From Stenomitos frigidus ULC029 (GTDB lineage: Bacteria; Cyanobacteriota; Cyanobacteriia; Leptolyngbyales; Leptolyngbyaceae), in contig CP170648.1 in NCBI GenBank assembly GCA_042919575.1, forward strand, positions 2,619,515-2,683,514: 64,000 nucleotides of DNA, in the 5' to 3' direction. The position numbers and the translations under genes were made by a program. Below the pieces are notes generated by a model. That model was not told the DNA's origin, did no database searches, and saw only the letters and a program-made list of their open reading frames with translations. Positions 3,732 to 53,935 of this stretch are shown here, piece by piece (the stretch's first letter is position 1; the number at the start of each line of letters is the position of its first letter).

Positions 3732-6377
3732 TTGATCCAAGCTGAAACCCTTGAACTTTTGGACTGGTCGCGGCTTTGCCAGCACCTCTCGACCTTTGCC
3801 GCTACCAAGTTAGGCGCGATCGCGGCTCGTCGTCTCCGTATCCCCGACACACAAGCAGAAACGCTAACCCTGCTGGCACAAACGCAGGAAGTGTATGCGC
3901 TTGAAAATCGTCTCAGCACCGGGCTAAAGTTTGACGGCATTACCGACATTGGCGAGTCATTAGAACGGGCAGAACGCCGGGCATTGCTGTCGGGCGAAGA
4001 ACTGCTAGCGATCGCGACCACACTCGCTGGTATGCGTCAGCTCCGGCGCGTCATCGACAACCAACCCGATCTCTTGGTGCTAAACGCGCTGATGCAAGAC
4101 CTGCGAACCTATCCAGAGTTGGAGCAAGAAATTCATCGCTGCATTGACGATCGTGGGCAAGTTGCCGATCGTGCGACACCCAAGTTGACAGGCATTCGAG
4201 AGCAGCAAAAACAATTGCGCGATCGCGTTTACAGCACCTTACAAAGTATCTTGCAGCGCAAAGCAAACGCGGTGCAGGAAAGCTTGATCACCCAGCGGGA
4301 AGGACGCTTTGTCATCCCCGTTAAAGCACCGCAAAAAGACGCGATTCCGGGCATTGTCCACGACACTTCTATGAGCGGTGCAACGCTTTACATCGAGCCA
4401 CAAGCCACCGTCAACTTAAACAATCAACTACGCCAGCTTCAGCGCCAGGAACAGGCGGAAGAAGAAGCCGTGCGTCAAGCGCTGACTGATCAGGTCGCCG
4501 TCGTGAAGCCTGATTTAGAGAGACTGCTGGCGATCGCGACGACCCTTGACCTCGCCACAGCCCGCGCTCGTTACAGTTTGTGGCTAGAAGCAAATCCGCC
4601 CCGATTTGTCACCAGGAACCCGGAGAGTGCGTCTGTCACACCCGAATCGATCGTCCTTCGCAATCTGCGGCATCCGCTCCTCATCTGGCAGCAGCAGCAT
4701 GAGCAGGGTCGCCCCGTCGTGCCGATCGATCTCGTCATCCAGCCACACATTCGCGTCGTTGCGATTACTGGACCCAACACTGGCGGCAAAACCGTTACCC
4801 TCAAAACCCTTGGTCTCGCTGTACTGATGGCAAAGGTCGGGCTATATGTGCCTGCCCGCGAACCCGTTGAGTTGCCCTGGTTCGACCAGGTGCTGGCAGA
4901 CATTGGTGATGAGCAGTCCCTAGAGCAAAGCCTGTCTACCTTTTCAGGACACATCCGGCGGATTAGTCGCATTTTGGCAGCGTTGGAGGAGAGGGGAGAG
5001 GAGAGAGGAGAGAGGGGTGAAAAGGAAGAAAGAGTAGAGGGAGCAGAGGAGGCGATGGGGACATGGGGGGATGATGAGCAAGACCGAACCGCAACTCAAA
5101 ACTTAGAACTCAAAACTCAAAACTCAAAACTCAAAACTCCTCTACCCCACTCCCTCGTCCTTCTCGACGAAGTTGGCGCTGGCACCGATCCCTCTGAAGG
5201 CAGTGCGTTGGCGATCGCCCTACTGAACCACTTGGCTGATCATGCAGGCTTGACTATTGCAACGACTCACTTTGGGGAACTCAAAGCGCTGAAATATCAG
5301 GACGATCGGTTTGAGAATGCCTCTGTCGAGTTTGATGATGTGTTGCTATCGCCTACCTATCGTCTGCTGTGGGGCATTCCAGGACGATCGAATGCGTTGA
5401 CGATCGCTCGTCGGTTGGGGTTGGATGCAGACGTGGTGGAGCAAGCGCAAACTCTGGTCGGTGGTGCTTCAGAAGATGTGAATCAGGTGATTGCTGGTCT
5501 CGAAGCCCAGCGTCGTCGCCAAGAAACCAAGTCCCAGGAGGCAGCACAGCTCTTAGAAAGTGCTGAACGTCTCCATCGCGAACTGTCTCGGAAAGCGGTG
5601 TCACTGAAGGAGCGAGAGCAGTCCTTACAGCAGGCGCAAGAACAGGCAGTCCAAGCAGCGATCGCTCAGGCAAAGAGTGAAATTGCCCAGGTCATCCGTC
5701 AGCTACAGCAGGGACCCATCTCCGCACAAGCGGCACAGCAGGCAACCGATTCACTGCATCAGCTTGCCGAGAATCGTCTGCCCTCACGCCAACCCAAACC
5801 GCCCAAGCCAGGGTTTCGTCCTCAGGTGGGCGATCGCGTTCGCATTCCGCGTCTCGGTCAAACGGCTGAAGTGCTAACAGCTCCCAACGATGATGAGGAA
5901 ATTACCGTTCGCTTTGGGCTAATGAAAATGACCGTGCCGATCGACGACGTGGAATCGTTAGATGGGGAAAAAGCGGTTAAAAAGCAGTCAGCAGTCAGCA
6001 GTCAGCCAGCAGCAGTGAGCGGTCAGGGCGCAGGCATCAGAAGTCAGGAGCCACTCAAAACTCAAAACTTAAGCCTTAAACCTTCAAACGCGCCGCCTGA
6101 TACTCAAAACCCCACTTCCGATACCCCTATCATCCGCACGTCTCACAATACGATCGACATTCGGGGCAGCCGCGTTGCCGATGCCGAGCCGATGATGGAG
6201 CAGGCGATCGCCCAGGCGTATGAGAGTGGCGTGCTATGGATTATTCACGGGCATGGGACGGGCAAATTGCGTCAAGGCGTACATGCTTTCTTGCAACACC
6301 ATCCTCAAGTCGAACGGTATGCATTGGCAAGCCGTGCGGATGGCGGTGCAGGTGTAACGTTGGCTTACCTGCATTAA
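3732..6377 (+). CDS. mutS2: endonuclease MutS2 (MutS domain plus C-terminal Smr domain), TTG start
   Basis: 881 aa. Walker A GPNTGGKT, then LLDEVGAGTDP. C-terminal Smr motif IHGHGTGKLR. Carries an in-frame low-complexity insertion at about 4984-5145. Confidence 0.9.
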   Translation: MIQAETLELLDWSRLCQHLSTFAATKLGAIAARRLRIPDTQAETLTLLAQTQEVYALENRLSTGLKFDGITDIGESLERAERRALLSGEELLAIATTLAGMRQLRRVIDNQPDLLVLNALMQDLRTYPELEQEIHRCIDDRGQVADRATPKLTGIREQQKQLRDRVYSTLQSILQRKANAVQESLITQREGRFVIPVKAPQKDAIPGIVHDTSMSGATLYIEPQATVNLNNQLRQLQRQEQAEEEAVRQALTDQVAVVKPDLERLLAIATTLDLATARARYSLWLEANPPRFVTRNPESASVTPESIVLRNLRHPLLIWQQQHEQGRPVVPIDLVIQPHIRVVAITGPNTGGKTVTLKTLGLAVLMAKVGLYVPAREPVELPWFDQVLADIGDEQSLEQSLSTFSGHIRRISRILAALEERGEERGERGEKEERVEGAEEAMGTWGDDEQDRTATQNLELKTQNSKLKTPLPHSLVLLDEVGAGTDPSEGSALAIALLNHLADHAGLTIATTHFGELKALKYQDDRFENASVEFDDVLLSPTYRLLWGIPGRSNALTIARRLGLDADVVEQAQTLVGGASEDVNQVIAGLEAQRRRQETKSQEAAQLLESAERLHRELSRKAVSLKEREQSLQQAQEQAVQAAIAQAKSEIAQVIRQLQQGPISAQAAQQATDSLHQLAENRLPSRQPKPPKPGFRPQVGDRVRIPRLGQTAEVLTAPNDDEEITVRFGLMKMTVPIDDVESLDGEKAVKKQSAVSSQPAAVSGQGAGIRSQEPLKTQNLSLKPSNAPPDTQNPTSDTPIIRTSHNTIDIRGSRVADAEPMMEQAIAQAYESGVLWIIHGHGTGKLRQGVHAFLQHHPQVERYALASRADGGAGVTLAYLH
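4984..5145 (+). repeat. in-frame composite repeat inside mutS2: GA-rich tract then (AACTCAAAAC/AAAACTC) x about 5
   Basis: gaggagaggggagaggagagaggagagagg... then aactcaaaacttagaactcaaaactcaaaactcaaaactcaaaactcc. Encodes EERGEERGERGE...LKTQNSKLKT between Walker A and Walker B. Confidence 0.8.
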
Positions 6378-7751: not shown

Positions 7752-8798
7752 CTAACCGCTAAAGTGCTGAAAACCTCGCTCCAGGGTTAGCGGTTGATCG
7801 GGTCGCGTTCCGGTTGCATCCACTAGCCAAACCGCTGGGTTTTCGGTGATCGTGCCAACGATCGCTGCGCCACGACCCAACTGTCGCACCAATGTCTGCG
7901 CCCTTGCCAACGGCAAACACAGGATCAACTCAAAATCTTCACCGCCATACAGTGCCCACTCCAGCGCTTGTTCTGTGCCCACCCATGGCTGCAACGCGGA
8001 CGGCAGTGGAATCTGACTCCGCTCAATGCTTGCGCCCACCTCGCTAGCCCGACCGATCTGCACGATCGCGTCAGCTAGTCCGTCGCTGCTGTCCATGCCT
8101 GCGATCGTCAGTGGCAATTGCGCGTCACCTGTTGCCCAAAGCAGATTAATAACATCCAATCGAGGCTTGGGGCGCTGATGTGCTTGGATTAGGGTTGCAC
8201 GATCGCGCTCACTTAACGATCGTCCCAATTCAGGATGCAGCAACAATTCCAATCCTGCCTTTGAAGCTCCGTGGATACCTGTTGCGACGATCGCGTCTCC
8301 TGGTTGAGCGGTCGAGCGGCGAATCAGATGGTTGGGTACGGCTTCTCCAAAGGCAGTAATGGCGATGGAAAGCACGGGCGATCGACAGAGATCACCACCC
8401 ACGATCGGCGTTTCGTACTGGTTCAAGCACTCCGTTAGCCCGCGATACAGCCCTTCCACCCAAAGCACCGGAGTGTCTCCAGGCAGTCCTAGACCGACTG
8501 TAATGCCTAAGGGCGTTGCTCCCATTGCTGCCAGATCAGAAAGATTTGCCGCTGCCGCTCTCCACCCTGCATCTGCCGCCGAGGTCGTCCGATCGCTAAA
8601 ATGCACGCCATCAATTAAAACATCTGTAGTAATGACCAACGATCGCCCCGGATGGGTGGTCAATACCGCTGCATCGTCTCCCACAAAGTCGGGTGGACAA
8701 AACGACTGCACCAGCTTGAGTAGACCTTGTTCACCGATTTCTTGAACGTTCAAGGCTGTCTTATTGAGTTTTATTCCAGTGTTCAGCACCACAAGCAA
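7752..8798 (-). CDS. thiL: thiamine-monophosphate kinase
   Basis: AIR-synthase-related fold motifs (GDDAAVL...ITTDVLIDGVHF...GGDL). True start likely downstream of the ORF-track start, which overlaps the upstream gene. Confidence 0.75.
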   Translation of the reverse strand: MLVVLNTGIKLNKTALNVQEIGEQGLLKLVQSFCPPDFVGDDAAVLTTHPGRSLVITTDVLIDGVHFSDRTTSAADAGWRAAAANLSDLAAMGATPLGITVGLGLPGDTPVLWVEGLYRGLTECLNQYETPIVGGDLCRSPVLSIAITAFGEAVPNHLIRRSTAQPGDAIVATGIHGASKAGLELLLHPELGRSLSERDRATLIQAHQRPKPRLDVINLLWATGDAQLPLTIAGMDSSDGLADAIVQIGRASEVGASIERSQIPLPSALQPWVGTEQALEWALYGGEDFELILCLPLARAQTLVRQLGRGAAIVGTITENPAVWLVDATGTRPDQPLTLERGFQHFSG

Positions 8799-9645
8799 TT
8801 AAGATTGACGCATCTTGTAACCAGATCGTCAAATCGGTTAGAGCAGCAAAATCGAGCAAGTCTTCGCTCAAATCTTCTAGAAGCGGTAAGGGTAAGGCAG
8901 TAATTTGCGATCGCACGGCTGGGTCGATCGTGCCAAATAGTCGGGTTAGTTGACGCAAAATGAGCGTTGCGCCCTCTTCTTGTCGTCCTTCTTGTCGTCC
9001 TTCTTGCCGTCCTTCCTGAAGAATCTCCTGGTAAATGACTGACTCCCGCATCATGCCCTCCCGAAATACCTGTTGTATCAGCGCCTTCTTAAAGCGTAGC
9101 CCTGCCAAGAGTTGCGTATAGGCGGAAACTTGCTCCCGCTGCTGGGTTGATTCTATTTTACTAATTTGCTGGGCAACCTGTTGGAGTAGCTGCTCTGGAG
9201 TCGTTGCCGCCGCTAATGCTGCCAGCGGTAAGAGTGCGATATCGTTAAGAAAGAGTGTTGGGTCTTGTTGCCACAAACACATCACATTGTACTCGTGGCG
9301 CGTCGATTCAACGGCAAAGACGGTTTGGATATCGCTCGTCCTTGTGGGTGGCAGGAGCAAGACAACTACTTGAGTGATCGGCAAGCGGTGAAGCCGATAC
9401 AGTCGTACCCAGTAGTCCAACATTCGTAGAGGCAGGGGCGGATCAGACTGAAGCTTGACCTGAAATTCCAGGTGCAGGATGCGCTCCTGGGTTCGTAGCA
9501 AAGTGACAGCATCGGCTCGAATGGGTTCAATGCTCAATTCAGTTTTCAGTATCGTCACTGAGGGTTGCGGCTCACCCAAAATCCAGGCAGCAAAGCGATC
9601 GGGATGTTTCTGTGCCAGCAGCTTACAAAGGTTATCAAAGGACAT
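8761..9645 (-). CDS. Rpn-family recombination-promoting nuclease / putative transposase (DUF4351, PD-(D/E)xK)
   Basis: N-terminus MSFDNLCKLLAQKHPDRFAAWILGEP is typical of the cyanobacterial Rpn/DUF4351 family. Contains a GRQEGRQEGRQE tandem repeat from a 12-nt x3 repeat at about 8985-9023. Confidence 0.65.
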   Translation of the reverse strand: MSFDNLCKLLAQKHPDRFAAWILGEPQPSVTILKTELSIEPIRADAVTLLRTQERILHLEFQVKLQSDPPLPLRMLDYWVRLYRLHRLPITQVVVLLLPPTRTSDIQTVFAVESTRHEYNVMCLWQQDPTLFLNDIALLPLAALAAATTPEQLLQQVAQQISKIESTQQREQVSAYTQLLAGLRFKKALIQQVFREGMMRESVIYQEILQEGRQEGRQEGRQEEGATLILRQLTRLFGTIDPAVRSQITALPLPLLEDLSEDLLDFAALTDLTIWLQDASILIACGAEHWNKTQ

Positions 9646-10779: not shown

Positions 10780-10875
10780 AATGACTGTAAACCTCAGAAG
10801 GGGCTAGGGGTTAGGAGAAAGGCTAAAGGATAAACGCTAAAGGCTAAAACAAGTTTCATCCTTATATCCCTTCGC

Positions 10876-28004: not shown

Positions 28005-28769
28005 ATGGATTCACCGTTACAAATTGTTTGGGCATTGGGCATGATGGCGATCGCCATTGCCCTCTCAGCATGGCAACGTTTGGGACTGGAGTGGAATTTA
28101 GCCGTCGCCACCGGACGCACAGTGATGCAATTGTTGGTCGTAGGCTACGTGCTGGCAGCAGTCTTCGCCATTCGCAATCCCTGGGCAGTGCTGGTGGTGC
28201 TGGGAGTGATGCTAGCGATCGCCACGATCGTGGCTCGTAATCGGATTAGCAAAAAAGTGCCGCACCTGCTGCCCCTGGTCGGTGGCTCCATTCTGGTGAG
28301 CACGGTTCTGACCCTGGCGTATACGAGCTTGCTGGTGATCCGACCGCAGGTCTGGTATGAACCGCAGTACGTCATTCCCCTCGCAGGCATTGTGCTGGGT
28401 AATGCGATGAATGGTGCCGCGATCGTGGGAGAACGCCTGGTCAGCACCCTGAACAACAGCCAGCTAGAGATTGAAACGCATCTAAGCTTGGGCGCAACAC
28501 CTCAGCAGGCGATCGCGCAATACCGCAAAGATGCCATCAAAGCGGGACTCATTCCGACCGTCAACACCATGATGGTCGTCGGTATTGTCACCCTACCTGG
28601 CATTATGACGGGGCAGATTCTAGCCGGAGCCGATCCCCTAGTGGCAGCCTCTTACCAGATGCTAGTCATGTTCATGGTGGCGTTTGCGACGCTGATTACA
28701 ACCTTGCTTGTGAGTTGGGGTATCTGTCGGCAGTTTTTCAATCAGGCGGCACAGCTAATCCTGTGGTAA
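28005..28769 (+). CDS. ABC transporter permease, FetB/YbbM (UPF0014) family
   Basis: 254-aa polytopic membrane protein. Sequence pattern consistent with the UPF0014/FetB family. Confidence 0.6.
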   Translation: MDSPLQIVWALGMMAIAIALSAWQRLGLEWNLAVATGRTVMQLLVVGYVLAAVFAIRNPWAVLVVLGVMLAIATIVARNRISKKVPHLLPLVGGSILVSTVLTLAYTSLLVIRPQVWYEPQYVIPLAGIVLGNAMNGAAIVGERLVSTLNNSQLEIETHLSLGATPQQAIAQYRKDAIKAGLIPTVNTMMVVGIVTLPGIMTGQILAGADPLVAASYQMLVMFMVAFATLITTLLVSWGICRQFFNQAAQLILW

Positions 28770-28864
28770 CGCCTGAAGACATTCCTGCACCCAGACTCGA
28801 AAGGCTTTGACCACGAACCTCTCGCCCAACTGATTGCTTTGGCTGACAAACCGAAGAATTTCGC

Positions 28865-30835
28865 TCACTCTGCAACTTGCCAGACACGAAGGGTGCGATC
28901 GCTGCTGCCGCTGACGATCGTTTTGCCATCGGCACTGAGGGCAATGGTGTTCACCGAGTTACTATGTCCAGACAGAACGATCGCCGCTGCTTGGGTGTTA
29001 TTTAAGTCCCATAGTTTTAGGGTGCCATCCCAACTGCCGCTGATGAGGGTCGTGCCATCGAGGGTAAATTTTAGTGCGCTCACTGTCCAGGAGTGTCCTG
29101 GTAAGGTACGCAGCAAGCGCCCTGTTTGTGTGCTCCAAAGCTTGATGGTGCGATCGTCCCCACCTGTCGCCAGCATTTGACTATCCAGGCTGAAGGCGAC
29201 TGCCTGCACCGTGCCGACGTGATCGCCCAAGGTGTAGCACATCTGAATAGTGAGATTTGCTTCGGTTGTCCACAAACAGACCGTGTGATCGGCGCTGGCG
29301 CTGGCAAGCAACTGTCCATTCGGACTAAAGGCAATCGCTGTGACATTCAGCCGATGTGCTTTGAGTGTGCAAAGTTCTTCTCGTGTCTGAAGATTCCAAA
29401 GCTTGATGGTTTTATCGCGGCTGGCGCTGGCAAGCATTCGTCCGCTGGGGGTAAACGCGATCGCGGTGACGGCTTGCGTGTGCTGACCCAAAACCTCGCT
29501 ACGACCAGAGATATCGAGATACCACTTTCGCGTCAGTACAACCGTTCGATCCTGTCCTCCAGAGGCAATGGTTGCGCCATCGGGGCTAAAGGCGATCGCA
29601 CGAATCGCCAGCACATGATCAAGCACAGCCGTGATCACATCGCCCGTTTGCAAATTCCAGAAGCGGATTGTTTTGTCTTCACTACTGCTGGCGACGATCG
29701 GGCGATTGGGACTGATGGCAACGGCATTGACGCAGGCAGTATGCCCCATAAAGGTGTGAGCGTAATGCCAGGAGGCGATCCGGGGAAAGTTTTGAATGAT
29801 GAGTTTTGAGTTTTGAGTTGAAAGAGTTGTTAGGTTCTGGCTGCTAGTTTTTAGTAGCAGATTTTCATCATTCTCACTCCCGACTCCTGACTCCTGAATT
29901 GCCCTCATTACTGCATCTGCTGATTGAAACCGCTTGCTCAAGGCATTTTGCAGGAGGCGATCGAGAATCATAGCAAGGCGATCGCTGACTGGGTTTGGCA
30001 CATACTGCCGCCAAGCCCAGTCATTGTTAGACAGATCGAAGAGGTCAAACGGCGATAAATCCGTCAGCAGATGAATACAGGTAACGCCCAGGCTGTAGAG
30101 ATCGCTGGCAAAAACGGCTTTACCCCGTGCCTGTTCTGGCGCGACATACTCAGCGCTACCGATGCTGGTGCCTGTTTTGAGGCGATCGCTCAGTTGCACT
30201 AATTTCGCCGCACCAAAATCTACTAAGACTAACTGAGAAGACTCCCTATCCCGTTGCCAGATCAGATTAGCGGGTTTGATATCGCGGTGAATGATTTGGC
30301 GATCGTGAATAAATTTGAGAATCGGCAGCACCTGATCCAACAGCCGCCAGATAAAGGCTTCTGTCACCGCGCCCTGTGCCAAAACCTGTTCAAGGTTCTG
30401 TCCGTCGATAAATTCTTGCACCAGGTAAAGCCGTTGATCGTCCTCAAACGCATTCAACAAAGCCGGAATCTGTGGATAGCTACCTAGTTCTCCAAGTCGC
30501 TGTGCCTCTTGATGAAAAAGAGCGATCGCCTCCGGTGCGGGCATCACCTGATGTGGAACAAACTGTTTGATGACACAAAAAGCGGTATCGGAAGCACGTG
30601 TGTGAGTTGCGTCACCATTGGCTTCTAACTCTAGATCGTCTGCCTTCTGCCCTCTGCCTTCTGCCTCTAGCTGCTCATCGATCGCCAAAAATGTCCGCCC
30701 AAAGCCCCCTTGACCAAGCAGTTGCACAGCACGATAGCGACGTTTCAACTGCAAGCAAAAACCGCAGGCTTGACAGCACTCAGCGCTATCAAGATTCTGC
30801 GGTACGTTGCATGTTGGGTTGAGGCAATAGCTCAT
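28865..30835 (-). CDS. Ser/Thr protein kinase fused to a seven-blade WD40 domain
   Basis: N-terminal Cys-rich segment, kinase motifs (GQGGFGRTF, HRDIKPANL, DFG), then WD40 repeats (GHT..V.AVAFSPDG...WD). Linker carries a composite repeat insertion. Confidence 0.85.
   Translation of the reverse strand: MSYCLNPTCNVPQNLDSAECCQACGFCLQLKRRYRAVQLLGQGGFGRTFLAIDEQLEAEGRGQKADDLELEANGDATHTRASDTAFCVIKQFVPHQVMPAPEAIALFHQEAQRLGELGSYPQIPALLNAFEDDQRLYLVQEFIDGQNLEQVLAQGAVTEAFIWRLLDQVLPILKFIHDRQIIHRDIKPANLIWQRDRESSQLVLVDFGAAKLVQLSDRLKTGTSIGSAEYVAPEQARGKAVFASDLYSLGVTCIHLLTDLSPFDLFDLSNNDWAWRQYVPNPVSDRLAMILDRLLQNALSKRFQSADAVMRAIQESGVGSENDENLLLKTSSQNLTTLSTQNSKLIIQNFPRIASWHYAHTFMGHTACVNAVAISPNRPIVASSSEDKTIRFWNLQTGDVITAVLDHVLAIRAIAFSPDGATIASGGQDRTVVLTRKWYLDISGRSEVLGQHTQAVTAIAFTPSGRMLASASRDKTIKLWNLQTREELCTLKAHRLNVTAIAFSPNGQLLASASADHTVCLWTTEANLTIQMCYTLGDHVGTVQAVAFSLDSQMLATGGDDRTIKLWSTQTGRLLRTLPGHSWTVSALKFTLDGTTLISGSWDGTLKLWDLNNTQAAAIVLSGHSNSVNTIALSADGKTIVSGSSDRTLRVWQVAE
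29790..29910 (-). repeat. in-frame composite repeat inside the kinase-WD40 linker (coding strand GA-rich then AACTCAAAACTCAAAACTC)
   Basis: Plus strand reads gagttttgagttttgagttg ... ctcactcccgactcctgactcc. Translated as ...QESGVGSENDEN...LSTQNSKLIIQN. Confidence 0.75.
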
Positions 30836-34883: not shown

Positions 34884-36194
34884 TCATGATGCCTTTACCG
34901 GGTCAACCGGACATTGAATCGCCCCGTTCGTTGACTGAAAGACCAACGGTGGAACCTTTGCAGCTTGCTGAGACGCACAAATCGCTGTGACGACCTTGTT
35001 GGTTGGCTGCGCGATCGCAACGGTTGCTGTATAGCTTTTTAAGCCTTCCGCTTTTGGAATGGCGGTAAGTTGAGCTTGATTGTTGTTGGGTATTGTGAGT
35101 TTGTAGATGTAGTCGCTATGAGTGGCGATCGGGACAGCCGCAAACCGCTCCAGCTCTTCTAAGGTGGCAGCAAAGCGAGTGTTCTGGCGATAGAATGCCT
35201 GCTGTGCCTTATTCATTGTGTCCAGGTAGTTTCTAGCCGCTGTCTGCTGCTGGTCGCGCGTACGCTCTACCTTGAACTGACTGGACATCTGGCTGCTAGA
35301 AGCAATCGCAGAGGATTGATTACCCGCTTTTCGTTCCGCACCACCCCAGGCATAGGAGTGGGCAAGGAGCGCGACCGCTCCACCCGCAGCAAAGGACACC
35401 ACTGTGACAAGTGCTGACACCTTAAGGTAGTTAACCGACCGATCACTCGTTGGTGAGTCGTTGAGTGCTTCTTGGCAAGAGCGATCGCGCCAGGGCAACC
35501 GCGTACTGATCTGCTGGCGTACGTCATTCCACGTTGCCAAAACATGAGGCAACGGCGCTTGAGGCTGTGAAGCTTGAGAAGATAAGTCTGGAGAAGATGA
35601 GTCTTGAGACTGCGAATTTTGAGCACGTAAAGCTTGAAGGTTTGCTTTAAACTTGCTCCAGCGTTGCTTCCACGGATCAAATTGGGTTGAGCGATCGCTC
35701 GAAGAATCCGTCATAGCACTAGAATCGGAGGCGTTAGAATCCGAGCTATGAGAATCTGGGGCGTTAAAATCTGGGACGTTAGAATCTGGGGCGCTAGGAC
35801 TAGACTCCGAAGCGCTAGAGGGTATCTCTAAGATTTCAGCTACGGGCGATTGAAACTCTGGAGCGCTAGAAGGTATCTCTAAAGTTTCAGCTACGGGCGA
35901 TCGAGGTACTGCAAACATTTCAACCCAGTAAGGCTCTTCCTCGCCAAGTCGCTGCCCATACACCTGCACGTACTGAATCGAAGACACTGCTAGACGAAGG
36001 ATGCCTCGCTGCACAAACGTTACCAGTGTTTGGGCATTTAACGGTCGGGCAGCATTGAAAAACACATGCAGACAGTCCCCATCCACAAGGGTTTCTGCTA
36101 TTACTCCCTGTGGCTCTAGCGTGGCATTGATCAGTGCCGCAATCGCCTGTGGATCACCCTGTTTTGCAAGTTCAAGTAGAGGCGGCTGAGTCAT
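34884..36194 (-). CDS. fusion protein: unknown N-domain, Ser/Pro/Asp-rich tandem-repeat linker, TM helix, and a type IV pilin-like G/H-family C-domain
   Basis: C-terminal MNKAQQAFYRQNTRFAATLEELE...YIYKL resembles the cyanobacterial 'type IV pilin-like G/H family' proteins. Linker encoded by nucleotide-level tandem repeats at about 35700-35900. Confidence 0.5.
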   Translation of the reverse strand: MTQPPLLELAKQGDPQAIAALINATLEPQGVIAETLVDGDCLHVFFNAARPLNAQTLVTFVQRGILRLAVSSIQYVQVYGQRLGEEEPYWVEMFAVPRSPVAETLEIPSSAPEFQSPVAEILEIPSSASESSPSAPDSNVPDFNAPDSHSSDSNASDSSAMTDSSSDRSTQFDPWKQRWSKFKANLQALRAQNSQSQDSSSPDLSSQASQPQAPLPHVLATWNDVRQQISTRLPWRDRSCQEALNDSPTSDRSVNYLKVSALVTVVSFAAGGAVALLAHSYAWGGAERKAGNQSSAIASSSQMSSQFKVERTRDQQQTAARNYLDTMNKAQQAFYRQNTRFAATLEELERFAAVPIATHSDYIYKLTIPNNNQAQLTAIPKAEGLKSYTATVAIAQPTNKVVTAICASQQAAKVPPLVFQSTNGAIQCPVDPVKAS

Positions 36195-47211: not shown

Positions 47212-48207
47212 TTAGTCATGCGTCGAGCCGTCGGGCATAGTTGCACCCTGGAGGTTTGCACCACTGAGATTCGCGCTGCTGAGTTCAGCTTTTGCCAGGT
47301 TAGCGTTGGTCAGGTTGGCATCGCGGAGATCAGCACGACCGAGGTAGGCTTCAATGAGGCTTGCATCGGTCAAATTGACACTTTGGAGTGTAGTGCGGCT
47401 CATACTTGCTCGATTGAGCCGCGATCGACACATAATTGCCTGAGCCAGGTTGGCTTTGCTCAGGTTGGCATCGGTCAGGTTAGCATCCGTCAGATTAACG
47501 TTTTTGAGTGTTGCTTCGGTCAAGTTAGCGCGCTCTAGCTTGGCACTAACCATGTTTGCCTGACTCAAATCAGCTTCGGTCAGATTAGCATCAGTCAAAA
47601 AGCAACTTTGCAGCGTGGCTCCGATTAAGTTTGCTTCGGTAAGATTGGCTTCTCGCAGACTGGTTTCAGTGAGGTTAGCACGACGAAGGTCGGCTTTGGT
47701 CAAATCAGCTCCGCTAAAGTTTGCACCGCGCAAGTCAGCATTGCGGAGGTCAACACCGCGCAAATTGGCACCTTCATAGCAGCGTTTTTCATAGCGCAGG
47801 TTAGCTCCACGCAGGCAGGCTCCGCGCAGGTTGGCGCTGCCGAGATTGACGTTTCGCAAATCAGCGCTGATCAGGTTGGCATCGAGCAGGATTGCCAGGG
47901 TGATATCGGCACCGCGTAGATCAGCGCCATAGAGGATGGCACCATGTAAGTCGGCATCGCGCAGTTTGGCGCTCATCAGATCAGCTTGACTCAGATTGGC
48001 TCCACTAAGACGGGTTCCAGCCAGGTTTGCCTTGCTCAGGTTGGCGCGGTTGAGGTATGCCAGAACCAGATTTGCGCCACGTAGATCGGTGCCTGTGAGG
48101 TCTGCGCCAATGAGATCGGCTCCGCCCAGATCTGCGCCACAAAGGTTTTCGCCCCGAAAGTCGGTTTCACCTGCCTGGTAGCGTTGCAGTAGCTCGATCG
48201 CGTCCAT
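47212..48207 (-). CDS. pentapeptide-repeat protein
   Basis: MDAIELLQRYQAGETDF, then ADL/ANLxx repeats through to the C-terminus. Confidence 0.8.
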   Translation of the reverse strand: MDAIELLQRYQAGETDFRGENLCGADLGGADLIGADLTGTDLRGANLVLAYLNRANLSKANLAGTRLSGANLSQADLMSAKLRDADLHGAILYGADLRGADITLAILLDANLISADLRNVNLGSANLRGACLRGANLRYEKRCYEGANLRGVDLRNADLRGANFSGADLTKADLRRANLTETSLREANLTEANLIGATLQSCFLTDANLTEADLSQANMVSAKLERANLTEATLKNVNLTDANLTDANLSKANLAQAIMCRSRLNRASMSRTTLQSVNLTDASLIEAYLGRADLRDANLTNANLAKAELSSANLSGANLQGATMPDGSTHD

Positions 48208-48366
48208 GATTGGTTTAGCCTCTGGCGGTTGTTTAGTTGTCGTTCGTTGCTGGCGGCCAACAGTTTTCAACCTGCCAACACCTTTGTTCAGTATGCCCCC
48301 AGGCAGGATGGCTAAGGACGTTTGAGCCTAGTTGATGAGGCATAGTAGCCCAAACCATTAACGGTG

Positions 48367-51910: not shown

Positions 51911-53935
51911 ATGAACCGTTCCCAGACCGCTCCCATGACTCAGCAAGAGCGTCAAACGCTCAGTCGTGTGATTGATTATAGTCAAGCAACATCCATTCCA
52001 GCGCTGTGGGCGATCGCGGCGCAACGCTTCAGCCAAAACACTGCCGTTTACGATCCCCATGCCGAGCCAGCGCTTAAGCTGACCTACGCTGCCCTTTACC
52101 AGCAAATGCAGCAGTTCGCGATCGGGCTACAGGCGTTAGGCGTACAGCCCGGTGAGCACATCGCCTTATTCTCCGATAACAACCCCCGCTGGCCCGTTGC
52201 TGACCAGGGCATCATGATGGCAGGTGCCGCAAATGCTGTGCGTGGCTCTCAGGCAGACCGCGACGAACTGCTGTTTATTCTGAAACACAGCGACAGCATC
52301 GGACTGGTCGTGCAAGACCAGGCAACGTTAACAAAGCTGGCTCAAGGTCTGGAGTCCCTGCCGCTACGGTTTATCGTACTGCTGACTGATGAAATGCCAT
52401 CGCCAGTCGGTACGATCAAGACGCTGAATTTTTCGCAATTGATGCAGACGGGCACAGGTCATACCCTTCAGCCTGTAAAGCTAGAACGTGACACGCTGGC
52501 AACCTTGATGTATACCTCTGGCACCTCTGGAATGCCAAAAGGGGTCATGCTGAGCCACAACAATTTACTGTCTCAAGTGACAGCAGCAGCCTCGGTCGTC
52601 AATCCCCAAAATGGGCGTGTGTTGAGCATTCTACCGATCTGGCACTGCTACGAGCGCACGTTTGAATACTTTACCTTTGCCTATGGCTGTACGCAGGCAT
52701 ACACCAACATTCGCTACGTCAAGAAAGACCTAAAGGATTTCAAGCCAAATTATATGGTGGCAGTGCCCCGGCTGTGGGAGTCCATTTACGAGGGCGTGCA
52801 AAAGCAGTTTCGAGAGCAACCTGCCAGTAAGCAGCGGTTGGTGAACTTCTTTTTGGGCGTGAGCCATCGTTACATTGCGGCACGTCGGCTGGTGGAGGGT
52901 GTGAGTTTGGAAAAGCTCCAGCCATCGATCGCCCAACGCCTTGCCGCTGCTGTCCAAGCTGCCGTTTTTTGGTTGCCCCATCAACTGGGCGATCGCCTGG
53001 TGTATAAAAAGGTGCGAGCAGGCATTGGGGGAGAGGTTGCCTTTTTTGTCAGTGGTGGAGGCTCGATCGCTGAACACCTGGAAGATTTTTTTGAAGTCGT
53101 TGGTATTCCGATTTTGGGCGGCTATGGGCTGACCGAAACCGCGCCTATTACCCATGTGCGTCGCCCCTGGCGCAACATTCGGGGTGGTGATGGGCAACCC
53201 CTACGCGACACCGAAACCCGCATTGTCGATCTTGAAACCCGCCAACCGCTGCCACTGCTGAAGCAAGGGCTAGTCCTGATTCGTGAGCCTCAGGTCATGC
53301 AGGGCTACTACAAAAACCCGGAAGCAACAGCTAAGGCGATCGATGCCGATGGCTGGTTCAACACAGGCGATTTGGGTTGGGTGACGGAGCAAGGCGATCT
53401 AATCATCACCGGACGCGCTAAAGACACGATCGTTCTGACGAGCGGTGAAAATATCGAACCGCAGCCGATTGAAGATGCCTGCCTCCGCAGCGCTTACATT
53501 GACCAAATCATGCTCGTTGGTCAGGATCAAAAAGTGTTGGGAGCACTAATTGTGCCCAACCTAGAGGCATTGCAAAAGTGGGCAGCCGCGCAGAATCTTG
53601 AGCTGCAACTGCCTGGGGAGGAGGAAGGAGAGAGGAGAGAGGAGAGAGAGAGGAGTCAGAAGCCAGAATCAACTCAAAACGCTTCACCCCTCACCCCTTA
53701 CTCCTTACCCCTGACCCTGAACAGCAAACCCGTTCAAGACCTAGTACGGCAGGAACTCAACCGAGAAGTGAAGAATCGTCCGGGCTATCGGGCAGACGAT
53801 CGCATTGGTCCGTTTCGACTGCTACTAGAGCCTTTTACGATCGACAATGGGCTGCTGACACAAACGCTAAAAATCCGGCGCAATGTCGTGATGGAACGCT
53901 ACCAGGGTATGATTAACGAGATGTTCGTTGGCTGA
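51911..53935 (+). CDS. aas: AMP-dependent synthetase/ligase (long-chain acyl-CoA/acyl-ACP synthetase-like)
   Basis: AMP-binding motif MYTSGTSGMPKGV, plus YGLTETAP and GWFNTGDLG. Carries an in-frame composite repeat at 53614-53720. Confidence 0.8.
   Translation: MNRSQTAPMTQQERQTLSRVIDYSQATSIPALWAIAAQRFSQNTAVYDPHAEPALKLTYAALYQQMQQFAIGLQALGVQPGEHIALFSDNNPRWPVADQGIMMAGAANAVRGSQADRDELLFILKHSDSIGLVVQDQATLTKLAQGLESLPLRFIVLLTDEMPSPVGTIKTLNFSQLMQTGTGHTLQPVKLERDTLATLMYTSGTSGMPKGVMLSHNNLLSQVTAAASVVNPQNGRVLSILPIWHCYERTFEYFTFAYGCTQAYTNIRYVKKDLKDFKPNYMVAVPRLWESIYEGVQKQFREQPASKQRLVNFFLGVSHRYIAARRLVEGVSLEKLQPSIAQRLAAAVQAAVFWLPHQLGDRLVYKKVRAGIGGEVAFFVSGGGSIAEHLEDFFEVVGIPILGGYGLTETAPITHVRRPWRNIRGGDGQPLRDTETRIVDLETRQPLPLLKQGLVLIREPQVMQGYYKNPEATAKAIDADGWFNTGDLGWVTEQGDLIITGRAKDTIVLTSGENIEPQPIEDACLRSAYIDQIMLVGQDQKVLGALIVPNLEALQKWAAAQNLELQLPGEEEGERREERERSQKPESTQNASPLTPYSLPLTLNSKPVQDLVRQELNREVKNRPGYRADDRIGPFRLLLEPFTIDNGLLTQTLKIRRNVVMERYQGMINEMFVG
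53614..53720 (+). repeat. in-frame composite repeat inside aas (GA-rich, then aactcaaaac, then C-rich ccctcacccc...)
   Basis: ggaggaggaaggagagaggagagaggagagagagaggag...caactcaaaacgcttcacccctcaccccttactccttacccctgaccc. Encodes EEEGERREERERSQ...STQNASPLTPYSLPLTL. Confidence 0.75.

Follow-up and report, generated by a model that had tools for sequence, protein, structure and literature searches.

A translated heptanucleotide repeat tract in the kinase-WD40 linker of Stenomitos frigidus ULC029, probably shaped by slippage and passive filtering

Tandem repeats with a unit of seven nucleotides (nt) lie inside several genes of a 64,000-nt stretch of the genome of Stenomitos frigidus ULC029, a non-heterocystous member of the Leptolyngbyaceae (contig CP170648.1, positions 2,619,515 to 2,683,514; this whole stretch is referred to as the window). 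Here we deal with the tract found in a gene for a Ser/Thr protein kinase with a WD40 propeller, where it separates the two domains. This is probably a translated tandem heptanucleotide tract of the long simple-sequence repeat (SSR) class, similar to the short tandemly repeated repetitive (STRR) sequences of cyanobacteria, that sits in a disordered linker, grows by slippage as such arrays may do in permissive loops, and is passively filtered. The gene and the parts of the tract are as follows, in window coordinates.

28865..30835, minus strand: host gene, Ser/Thr protein kinase plus 7-bladed WD40 propeller, 656 aa (list of open reading frames, Pfam, syntenic orthologues)
29873..29897, minus strand: 5' part of the tract, (GGAGTCR)x3, encoding ..QESGVGSE.., residues ~313-321 (Tandem Repeats Finder, translation)
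29820..29872, minus strand: decayed middle ("spacer") of degenerate period-7 units (..CTGCTAC, TAAAAAC, TAGCAGC, CAGAACC, TAACAAC..), encoding NDENLLLKTSSQNLTTLS (7-nt register print-out)
29788..29819, minus strand: 3' part of the tract, (AAAACTC)x3 and two units that have decayed; translated as TQNSKLIIQN, residues ~339-350 (Tandem Repeats Finder, translation)

Read on the coding (minus) strand from 29897 to 29788, the tract consists of CAGGAGTCAGGAGTCGGGAGTGAG, 53 nt, and then AACTCAAAACTCAAAACTCATCATTCAAAAC, and it is translated as ...GVGSENDENLLLKTSSQNLTTLSTQNSKLIIQN... Tandem Repeats Finder (TRF) called period-7 arrays at 29788-29819 (4.6 copies) and at 29876-29897 (3.1 copies). The AACTCAA-type 19-mer AACTCAAAACTCAAAACTC has 8 matches with no more than 3 mismatches in the window, as compared to 0.01 expected from shuffles. 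An earlier reading of this DNA by eye (the original prediction) had described a composite repeat at this place; the plus strand at 29788-29897 agrees with that description, and both TRF and the shuffle test back it.

The original prediction also held that the repeat is translated and lies in the interdomain linker, which the Pfam borders, the translation and the residue positions confirm. The Pkinase domain is N-terminal and ends at about residue 307, WD40 extends from about 355 (first blade) to 656, and the heptamer tract occupies residues ~313-350 between them, a segment in which Pfam found no domain. The region is not conserved kinase sequence, which the same prediction had named as a possibility that would speak against it. 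In an AlphaFold model, built on a 15-sequence alignment and poor for the kinase domain itself, residues 317-352 are coil with a predicted local distance difference test (pLDDT) score of 25-29, and the adjoining propeller is confidently folded (pLDDT >90). The window is cyanobacterial (51% GC, 71 HIP1 octamers), the kinase gene product matches a protein of Stenomitos frigidus ULC029 at 100% identity, and the gene order at the kinase locus, Band_7 - kinase - UPF0014 - DegT, is the same in the window and in the syntenic orthologues.

Strand, reading frame and turnover

Three heptamers make 21 nt, or seven codons, and an array therefore runs through all three frames every 21 nt, so that being "in frame" is meaningless for the array itself. 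The cyclic heptapeptide is identical in any frame (NSKLKTQ from AACTCAA; GVRSQES from GGAGTCA). The reverse complements, TTGAGTT and TGACTCC, contain TGA, and an antisense array of at least three units thus carries a stop codon, with TGA recurring every 21 nt. This excludes antisense arrays inside open reading frames (ORFs). A plus-strand ORF at 29126-29809 (227 aa), antisense to the WD40 region, ends at a TGA that the GAGTTTTGAG array creates, and thereby shows this stop-codon filter at work; the ORF itself is probably spurious.

A scan for the 19-mer array with one genome per species yielded at least 117 stretches, and orientation was counted over 120 loci from other genomes. Among the matches listed, about 35 are cyanobacterial, and the others belong to Bacteroidota, Chloroflexia, Acidobacteriota, delta-proteobacteria, Verrucomicrobiota, candidate phyla radiation (CPR) bacteria and archaeal metagenome-assembled genomes (MAGs), among others. 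Among these same matches, arrays inside ORFs of at least 150 aa are 32 sense to 0 antisense, while the orientation of intergenic arrays with respect to neighbouring genes is 60:58 (21:23 in cyanobacteria and 39:35 in the others). The orientation is therefore locked only where stop codons enforce it. Intergenic positions account for 33 of the 37 cyanobacterial AACTCAA arrays among the matches listed, and 28 of the 86 perfect (AACTCAA)n arrays listed from non-cyanobacterial genomes are inside ORFs of at least 150 aa, all of them in sense. The same array is truly intragenic in the linker between the halves of an ArsA-like ATPase (L039) and in an interdomain linker of the glycine dehydrogenase GcvP (L091). 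Six further cases that seemed to span ORFs (L034, L053, L072, L110, L040, L033) lie 10-160 nt upstream of start codons, on the sense strand; arrays upstream of start codons in cyanobacteria are found, for example, at rplB in Nostoc sp. NMS4 and at an AcrB-like gene in Aphanothece. Orientation coupled to transcription is ruled out by the random orientation of intergenic arrays relative to their neighbouring genes. As for an explanation by replication strand, the GC skew of the window is weak and non-monotonic, and thus uninformative.

Syntenic orthologues at 95% and at 71-76% identity are all in frame and have a hypervariable linker (the frame was checked in the DNA of eight orthologues and in 15 aligned proteins). 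The linker arrays are (GGAGTCR)x3 ... (AAAACTC)x3 in the window; (GGGGAGT)x5.5 ... (AACTCAA/C)x4.5 in orthologue P0004; (GGGAGTC)x6 ... (ACACCTC)x5 in P0008; (GGCAGAA)x5 ... (CACCCCA)x4 (AACTCAA)x5 in P0009; (GGCAGRA)x5 ... (CACCCCA/TACCCTA)x6 in P0011; (GCGGTCA)x3.5 followed by five AACTCAA-like units in P0006; and only (ACTCCCC)x6 in P0012. The spacer is common to the window, P0002, P0004 and P0008, partial in P0011, and absent from P0006 and P0012. As each orthologue has different near-perfect heptamers at the site, the encoded peptide is not conserved. Between the window and the 95% relative, the 38 tract codons show 2 non-synonymous and 2 synonymous changes. The tract is old at its site and young in its arrays, and its peptide sequence is unconstrained.

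The 5' array has 3 units in the window and 6 in P0004 and P0008, where it is longer by three whole units (+21 nt). The linkers measure 186, 186, 207, 231, 264, 228, 144 and 144 nt, six of the eight belonging to the same class modulo 21 (binomial P=0.005), and the second of two tracts in mutS2 (see below) differs from its 92% orthologue, P0122, by an indel of exactly 21 nt. The idea that copy number varies in steps that keep the frame, put forward with the original prediction, is thus supported by the kinase 5' array and by mutS2, and the opposite case, a tract that breaks the frame in relatives, does not hold for any orthologue examined. A further step of that prediction, from locked orientation and frame to a selected or mechanistically constrained element, is not supported: stop codons and the 21-nt arithmetic largely explain the pattern, and the peptide is not conserved. 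Genome-wide homogenisation to one heptamer per genome was considered and rejected, as P0008 carries ACACCTC in the kinase linker and both AACTCAA and ACTCCCC in mutS2.

Most of these data are consistent with the notion that units are gained, lost and re-homogenised by slipped-strand mispairing. Two filters would then act on the outcome: only net length changes that leave WD40 in frame would survive, either as 21-nt (three-unit) steps or as compensated indels, as is seen in several of the comparisons above; and only the stop-free strand orientation is possible inside an ORF, as the orientation counts bear out. The product would be a low-complexity spacer without conserved sequence, of which at most the length matters. 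A repeat with a non-triplet unit can thus live in essential-type genes, for three heptamers form a frame-neutral quantum of 21 nt and 7 codons. The oriented, in-frame "same insertion" pattern is in this way explained without a special element, which should temper similar calls in cyanobacterial genomes. Such tracts evolve rapidly and supply conserved proteins (MutS2, the kinase-WD40 protein, the acyl ligase, the ArsA-like ATPase and GcvP) with disordered linkers and with insertions in loops, and they are relevant to the annotation, alignment and phylogeny of these genes as well as to the origin of bacterial low-complexity regions.

Other heptamer tracts and their common register

Including the kinase linker, the window holds five period-7 tracts, all of them inside ORFs (which cover about 78% of the window) and all translated in sense. 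The remaining four are listed here.

30639..30666, minus strand: second array of the kinase gene, (AGGCAGA)x4, encoding EAEGRGQKA, in the N-lobe, with the Gly-rich loop on one side and the conserved CVIKQ lysine strand on the other (TRF)
4986..5160, plus strand: mutS2 copy 1, (GGAGAGG)x4, a purine-rich spacer, (AACTCAA)x6.7 and a C-rich remnant (TRF, Pfam)
5981..6073, plus strand: mutS2 copy 2, 13 units, namely AGCAGTC x3, AGCCAGC, AGCAGTG, AGCGGTC, AGGGCGC, AGGCATC, AGAAGTC, AGGAGCC, ACTCAAA x2 and ACTTAAG (TRF, register print-out)
53617..53717, plus strand: copy in an AMP-dependent acyl ligase (aas-like), (GAGGAGA)x5, then AGGAGTC, AGAAGCC, AGAATCA and ACTCAAA, then (ACCCCTC-type)x6; residues ~570-603 (TRF, Pfam)

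The N-lobe site of the kinase is filled in most orthologues by a segment of 126-195 nt, with the full composite in P0011 and P0012. In mutS2, whose product passes its NCBIfam equivalog cut-off, copy 1 interrupts the MutS_V ATPase domain, where STFSGH..ISRILAAL precedes it and the Walker-B-like SLVLLDEVGAGTDP comes just after it; across orthologues this site ranges from 0 aa (Trichocoleus) to about 85 aa, and in many genera the order there is purine-rich (GERGEE / AEGRGQE), then TQNSKLKTQNS, then PTPHSPLPTPY. Copy 2 is between the MSSS/SH3 and Smr domains (Pfam). Members of the Stenomitos/Tildeniella clade have a hypervariable ligase site with the same polarity; orthologues further away have a short loop of unique sequence there. 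The original prediction had the kinase repeat shared with mutS2 and aas. The sharing itself stands, with the same sense orientation and order of parts; the gene name aas is unverified, and since the AMP-binding acyl ligase ORF reached no NCBIfam equivalog cut-off, it is a plausible name only. To that earlier description can be added the two copies in mutS2, the second array in the kinase gene, and a C-rich (Pro-rich) third part that is usual in relatives.

These composites keep a single register. A 7-nt print-out shows all 13 consecutive units of mutS2 copy 2 in one register, and in the ligase 11 consecutive A-initial units, spanning three arrays that appear to be different, likewise share one. 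For the kinase linker, both the window and P0004 keep the GAGT units in the same phase as the ACTC units on the far side of the decayed middle, and the offset from GAGT to ACTC is 5 modulo 7 for all three units. Since one register runs through the composites, each is best read as one heptamer tract that shifts from G-rich to G-free units, rather than as two arrays with a spacer between them. Units at the 5' end are of the G-rich AGGAGTC type, the middle is decayed, and those at the 3' end are of the G-free ACTCAAA type, continuing in relatives into a proline-coding ACTCCCC type. The 5' and 3' unit families are reverse-complementary to each other (GGGGAGT/ACTCCCC, GAGTTTT/AAAACTC, GGGGACT/CCCCAGT and GAGTGCT/AGCACTC).

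The process proposed for the kinase linker would be the same at the four other permissive loops in the window and at orthologous sites across the Leptolyngbyaceae. Because the same process would act at each permissive loop, unrelated genes come to look like recipients of the "same insertion".

The sole intergenic heptamer-type array in the window, (AAAGGCT)x4.4 at 10813-10848 (alternatively called as a 14-mer), has stop codons in both orientations.

Polarity and rival explanations

Several observations weigh against slippage and passive filtering as the full account. The flanks of arrays were compared in 31 cyanobacterial loci, which are mostly intergenic. Purine content is 0.55 in the 5' flank and 0.445 in the 3' flank (P=7e-5), C content is 0.19 and 0.30 (P=2e-5), and GAGT motifs number 0.97 and 0.16 per 100 nt (P=0.002), respectively. 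The 78 non-cyanobacterial loci among the matches listed show the same trends, more weakly. Being significant in mostly intergenic loci, this polarity is not a coding artefact, and slippage plus coding filters do not account for it. In addition, the junction (GRAGTCA)n to (AACTCAA)n recurs in mutS2 copy 2, in the acyl ligase and in a Spirulinaceae locus (L011), a recurrence that copying of a composite could produce. Turnover is not fast over the distance that separates the window from its 95% relative, since the two have the same unit numbers in both kinase arrays and differ there by point changes only. Neither the kinase N-lobe nor mutS2 site 1 follows the modulo-21 pattern, which means that indels other than 21-nt steps contribute. 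Finally, slippage itself was not directly observed, and the census of tracts is that of the 64-kb window of the ULC029 genome.

One way to accommodate the polarity is a self-propagating polar composite, with NNNGAGT-type units 5' and ACTCNNN-type units 3', in one register and with reverse-complementary halves, that would colonise, in cyanobacteria and perhaps in other phyla, intergenic DNA as well as permissive loops of conserved proteins. Fold-back or template switching during the copying of a heptamer array is one way in which it might be made, although such an origin of the inverted arrays is purely hypothetical. We regard this composite as unlikely. If it were real, it would continually supply disordered insertions, the ATPase domain of MutS2 being one of the places reached. 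The change from G-rich to G-free units, which non-coding copies show as well, bears on the old question of how the heptamer repeats of cyanobacteria originated.

Elements that insert as a unit offer another comparison. Rickettsia palindromic elements (RPEs), reportedly described in 2000, are said to be selfish DNA inserted in frame into protein-coding genes (reviewed in PMC10969869). The window tracts are likewise extra in-frame segments of conserved genes unrelated to one another, at places where the fold can accommodate them, and they may have some palindromic character. Unlike RPEs, which are about 100-150 bp long and have a conserved family sequence and encoded peptide, the window copies have no defined ends, differ between close orthologues and have only heptamer unit types in common. 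A discrete element of this kind, (NNNGAGT)n...(ACTCNNN)n, spread by copy-and-paste mobility or recombination, of which only the stop-free, in-frame insertions survived, would explain why the order of parts is identical at the five sites, spread over three genes, and at the orthologous positions, why the unit families are reverse-complementary, why the polarity is significant in non-coding loci too, why junction motifs are common to several loci and genomes, and why Trichocoleus has an empty mutS2 site; the hairpin potential of some copies is also strong (z=-4.1 in P0004 and z=-2.6 in P0008). Yet most copies have no such potential (z -1.3 to +0.9), and the copies have no full-length sequence in common. 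The spacer is single-copy in the 64-kb window and had 0 matches in metagenome contigs, and its 20-nt hairpin CTGCTA(N8)TAGCAG, seen at a single place in the window, is not kept in P0004, which rules out a dispersed conserved "core" element in the spacer. Comparison of filled and empty mutS2 sites revealed neither terminal repeats nor a target-site duplication; different units at orthologous sites fit turnover in situ better than repeated insertion; and the intergenic GAGTTTT arm carries TGA, making insertion of it into an ORF impossible. An insertion target was sought in HIP1, since in Trichocoleus the mutS2 site without an insert reads exactly GCGATCGC (HIP1) and CGATCG motifs bracket the kinase inserts. 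These palindromes are so dense (71 HIP1 octamers GCGATCGC and 266 CGATCG hexamers in 64 kb, about 1 per 240 nt) that any association needs a test against background, and the link is not above it: CGATCG occurs at 4.2/kb in the window, and within 40 nt of heptamer blocks it is not enriched (1.63 vs 2.78 per kb). Taken together, a mobile palindromic element is improbable.

The tract might also be kept for its peptide, serving for instance as a docking motif, a cluster of phosphorylation sites, or a linker tuned in flexibility or charge, with selection preserving its orientation and order. Tracts do persist at the same sites across genera, always in frame; a charged (E/G/R/K), then polar (TQNSKLK), then Pro-rich order recurs; and S/T-rich sequence adjoins a Ser/Thr kinase domain. 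But sequence is not conserved even among the 71-76% orthologues, some of which are without whole parts, and the linker varies from near zero to about 60 extra residues. Nor do the changes relative to the 95% relative (2 non-synonymous and 2 synonymous in 38 codons), the low-pLDDT coil without a Pfam domain, or the mostly intergenic position of the same DNA units in other cyanobacteria (33/37 arrays among the matches listed) speak for a peptide module, which we consider very unlikely. That the units are mostly intergenic there points to a phenomenon at the level of DNA.

Pairing of GAGU with ACUC arrays in mRNA, with an effect on translation or stability, has in its favour that the kinase copy folds with the two in register (minimum free energy -21.1 kcal/mol, z=-1.7), that shuffled sequences fold significantly less well than the P0004 and P0008 versions, and that intergenic copies are often clear inverted arrays. 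Most copies, however, have z-scores that match those of shuffles and of control coding windows. The values are heterogeneous, being -4.1 and -2.6 in two orthologues, -1.3 to -2.0 in the kinase and first mutS2 copies of the window, and about 0 in six others, and a conserved RNA hairpin as a general feature is unsupported. One arm is absent altogether in P0012 and P0006, and Rfam 15 gave 0 matches at the gathering score in the whole window. A function in RNA is very unlikely. A repeat unit that is not a multiple of three, inside an ORF, is furthermore the classical architecture of phase-variable genes, and it could be supposed that heptamer number switches WD40 in and out of frame. The phase-variable loci of host-adapted pathogens resemble the window tracts in being intragenic, in having such a unit and, presumably, in changing by slippage. 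They differ in that no frame switching is seen among the relatives here, all 8 orthologue DNAs and all 15 aligned proteins being in frame, and in that the present arrays, at 3-6 units, are short and remain stable from one close strain to the next, the closest two genomes having identical copy numbers. That a contingency locus is at work is hardly conceivable, and the kinase linker tract is not a phase-variation switch.

Related repeats and further observations

The closest relatives of the tract are the heptamer repeats of cyanobacteria, of which STRR sequences were reportedly described in 1990. The canonical units of STRR1-3 are CCCCAGT, TTGGTCA and CAACAGT. The kinase linker tract has the structure that defines cyanobacterial heptanucleotide simple-sequence (STRR-like) repeats, with units that are non-canonical and translated. 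Like STRR and other long SSRs, the window arrays are made of head-to-tail 7-nt units, are dispersed in many copies in filamentous cyanobacteria, and mix unit types at one locus; canonical CCCCAGT arrays even directly adjoin AACTCAA arrays in other genomes (L047, L053, L063). Unlike STRR1-3, the window has units such as GGAGTCR, AAAACTC, AGGCAGA, AGCAGTC and TCACCCC, and all five of its tracts are translated, whereas the known repeats are reported to be mainly intergenic, as in Nostoc (Rehm et al. 2015, PMC4692102). In the part of Mrazek 2007 relayed in PMC4679880, heptamers are the most abundant class of long SSR in bacteria, with cyanobacteria among the richest genomes.

Direct repeats of TAACTGA have been described from Beggiatoaceae, Cyanobacteria and Bacteroidetes, with ORF-internal copies only in the stop-free orientation (MacGregor 2015, PMC4679880), so that the argument from stop codons and orientation was already published for those arrays (PMC4679880). 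The likeness is close: both repeats are spread patchily over cyanobacteria, Bacteroidota and other phyla; both are found in ORFs in the stop-free orientation only, giving a peptide with a period of 7 residues; both often lie just upstream of start codons, in the position of a 5' leader; and both differ between strains by indels in 7-nt increments. The unit is different, however, and ORF-internal TAACTGA repeats are mostly in hypothetical proteins or at protein ends, whereas the window tracts are polar composites in internal loops and linkers of conserved proteins (the MutS2 ATPase domain and the kinase N-lobe). Small dispersed repeats (SDRs) of Nostoc, reportedly described in 2008, are said to sit inside arrays of tandem heptamers and to fold into small hairpins. 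They too have cyanobacterial hosts; unlike SDRs, the window did not contain a conserved dispersed hairpin unit of 21-27 nt. A text search of the literature for strings of the heptamer arrays gave no relevant match.

At the kinase locus, a gene of the Uma2 family (PF05685) sits between kinase and UPF0014 at three orthologous loci (L001 5261-5908, L002 5056-5709 and L003 5173-5826). The window has about 96 nt (28769-28865) at this position, and L125 is likewise without the gene; its presence or absence differs even from the 95% relative.

Tandem repeats of other kinds are also present in the window. At 35576-35901, 15-nt (x2.3 and x5.2) and 51-nt (x1.9) repeats lie inside the minus-strand ORF 34884..36194; their units are in-frame and of a different kind from the heptamers. 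The minus-strand ORF 8761..9645 contains the 12-nt repeat CTTCTTGTCGTC (x3.3, 96% matches) at 8976-9015. Repeats of 15 nt (CAGGTTGGCATCGCT-like) at 47446-47497 and 47795-47832 are inside the minus-strand ORF 47212..48270, which may encode a pentapeptide-repeat protein.

Two features were seen at arrays of other genomes. At several loci of Oscillatoriaceae cyanobacterium Prado104 (L005, L083, L100, L118), AACTCAA arrays are regularly broken by a CCGAGAA or CCCGAGA motif (AACTCAAAACTCCCGAGAAACTCAAAACTC), which makes them a higher-order repeat. In Leptolyngbya sp. PCC 6406 (L033), about 140 nt upstream of the AACTCAA array, there are two direct repeats of about 60 nt with an internal inverted repeat (GCTTCGCG...GCGAAGCC...TTAGCGTTATGCACCCT), which may be a different small dispersed element.

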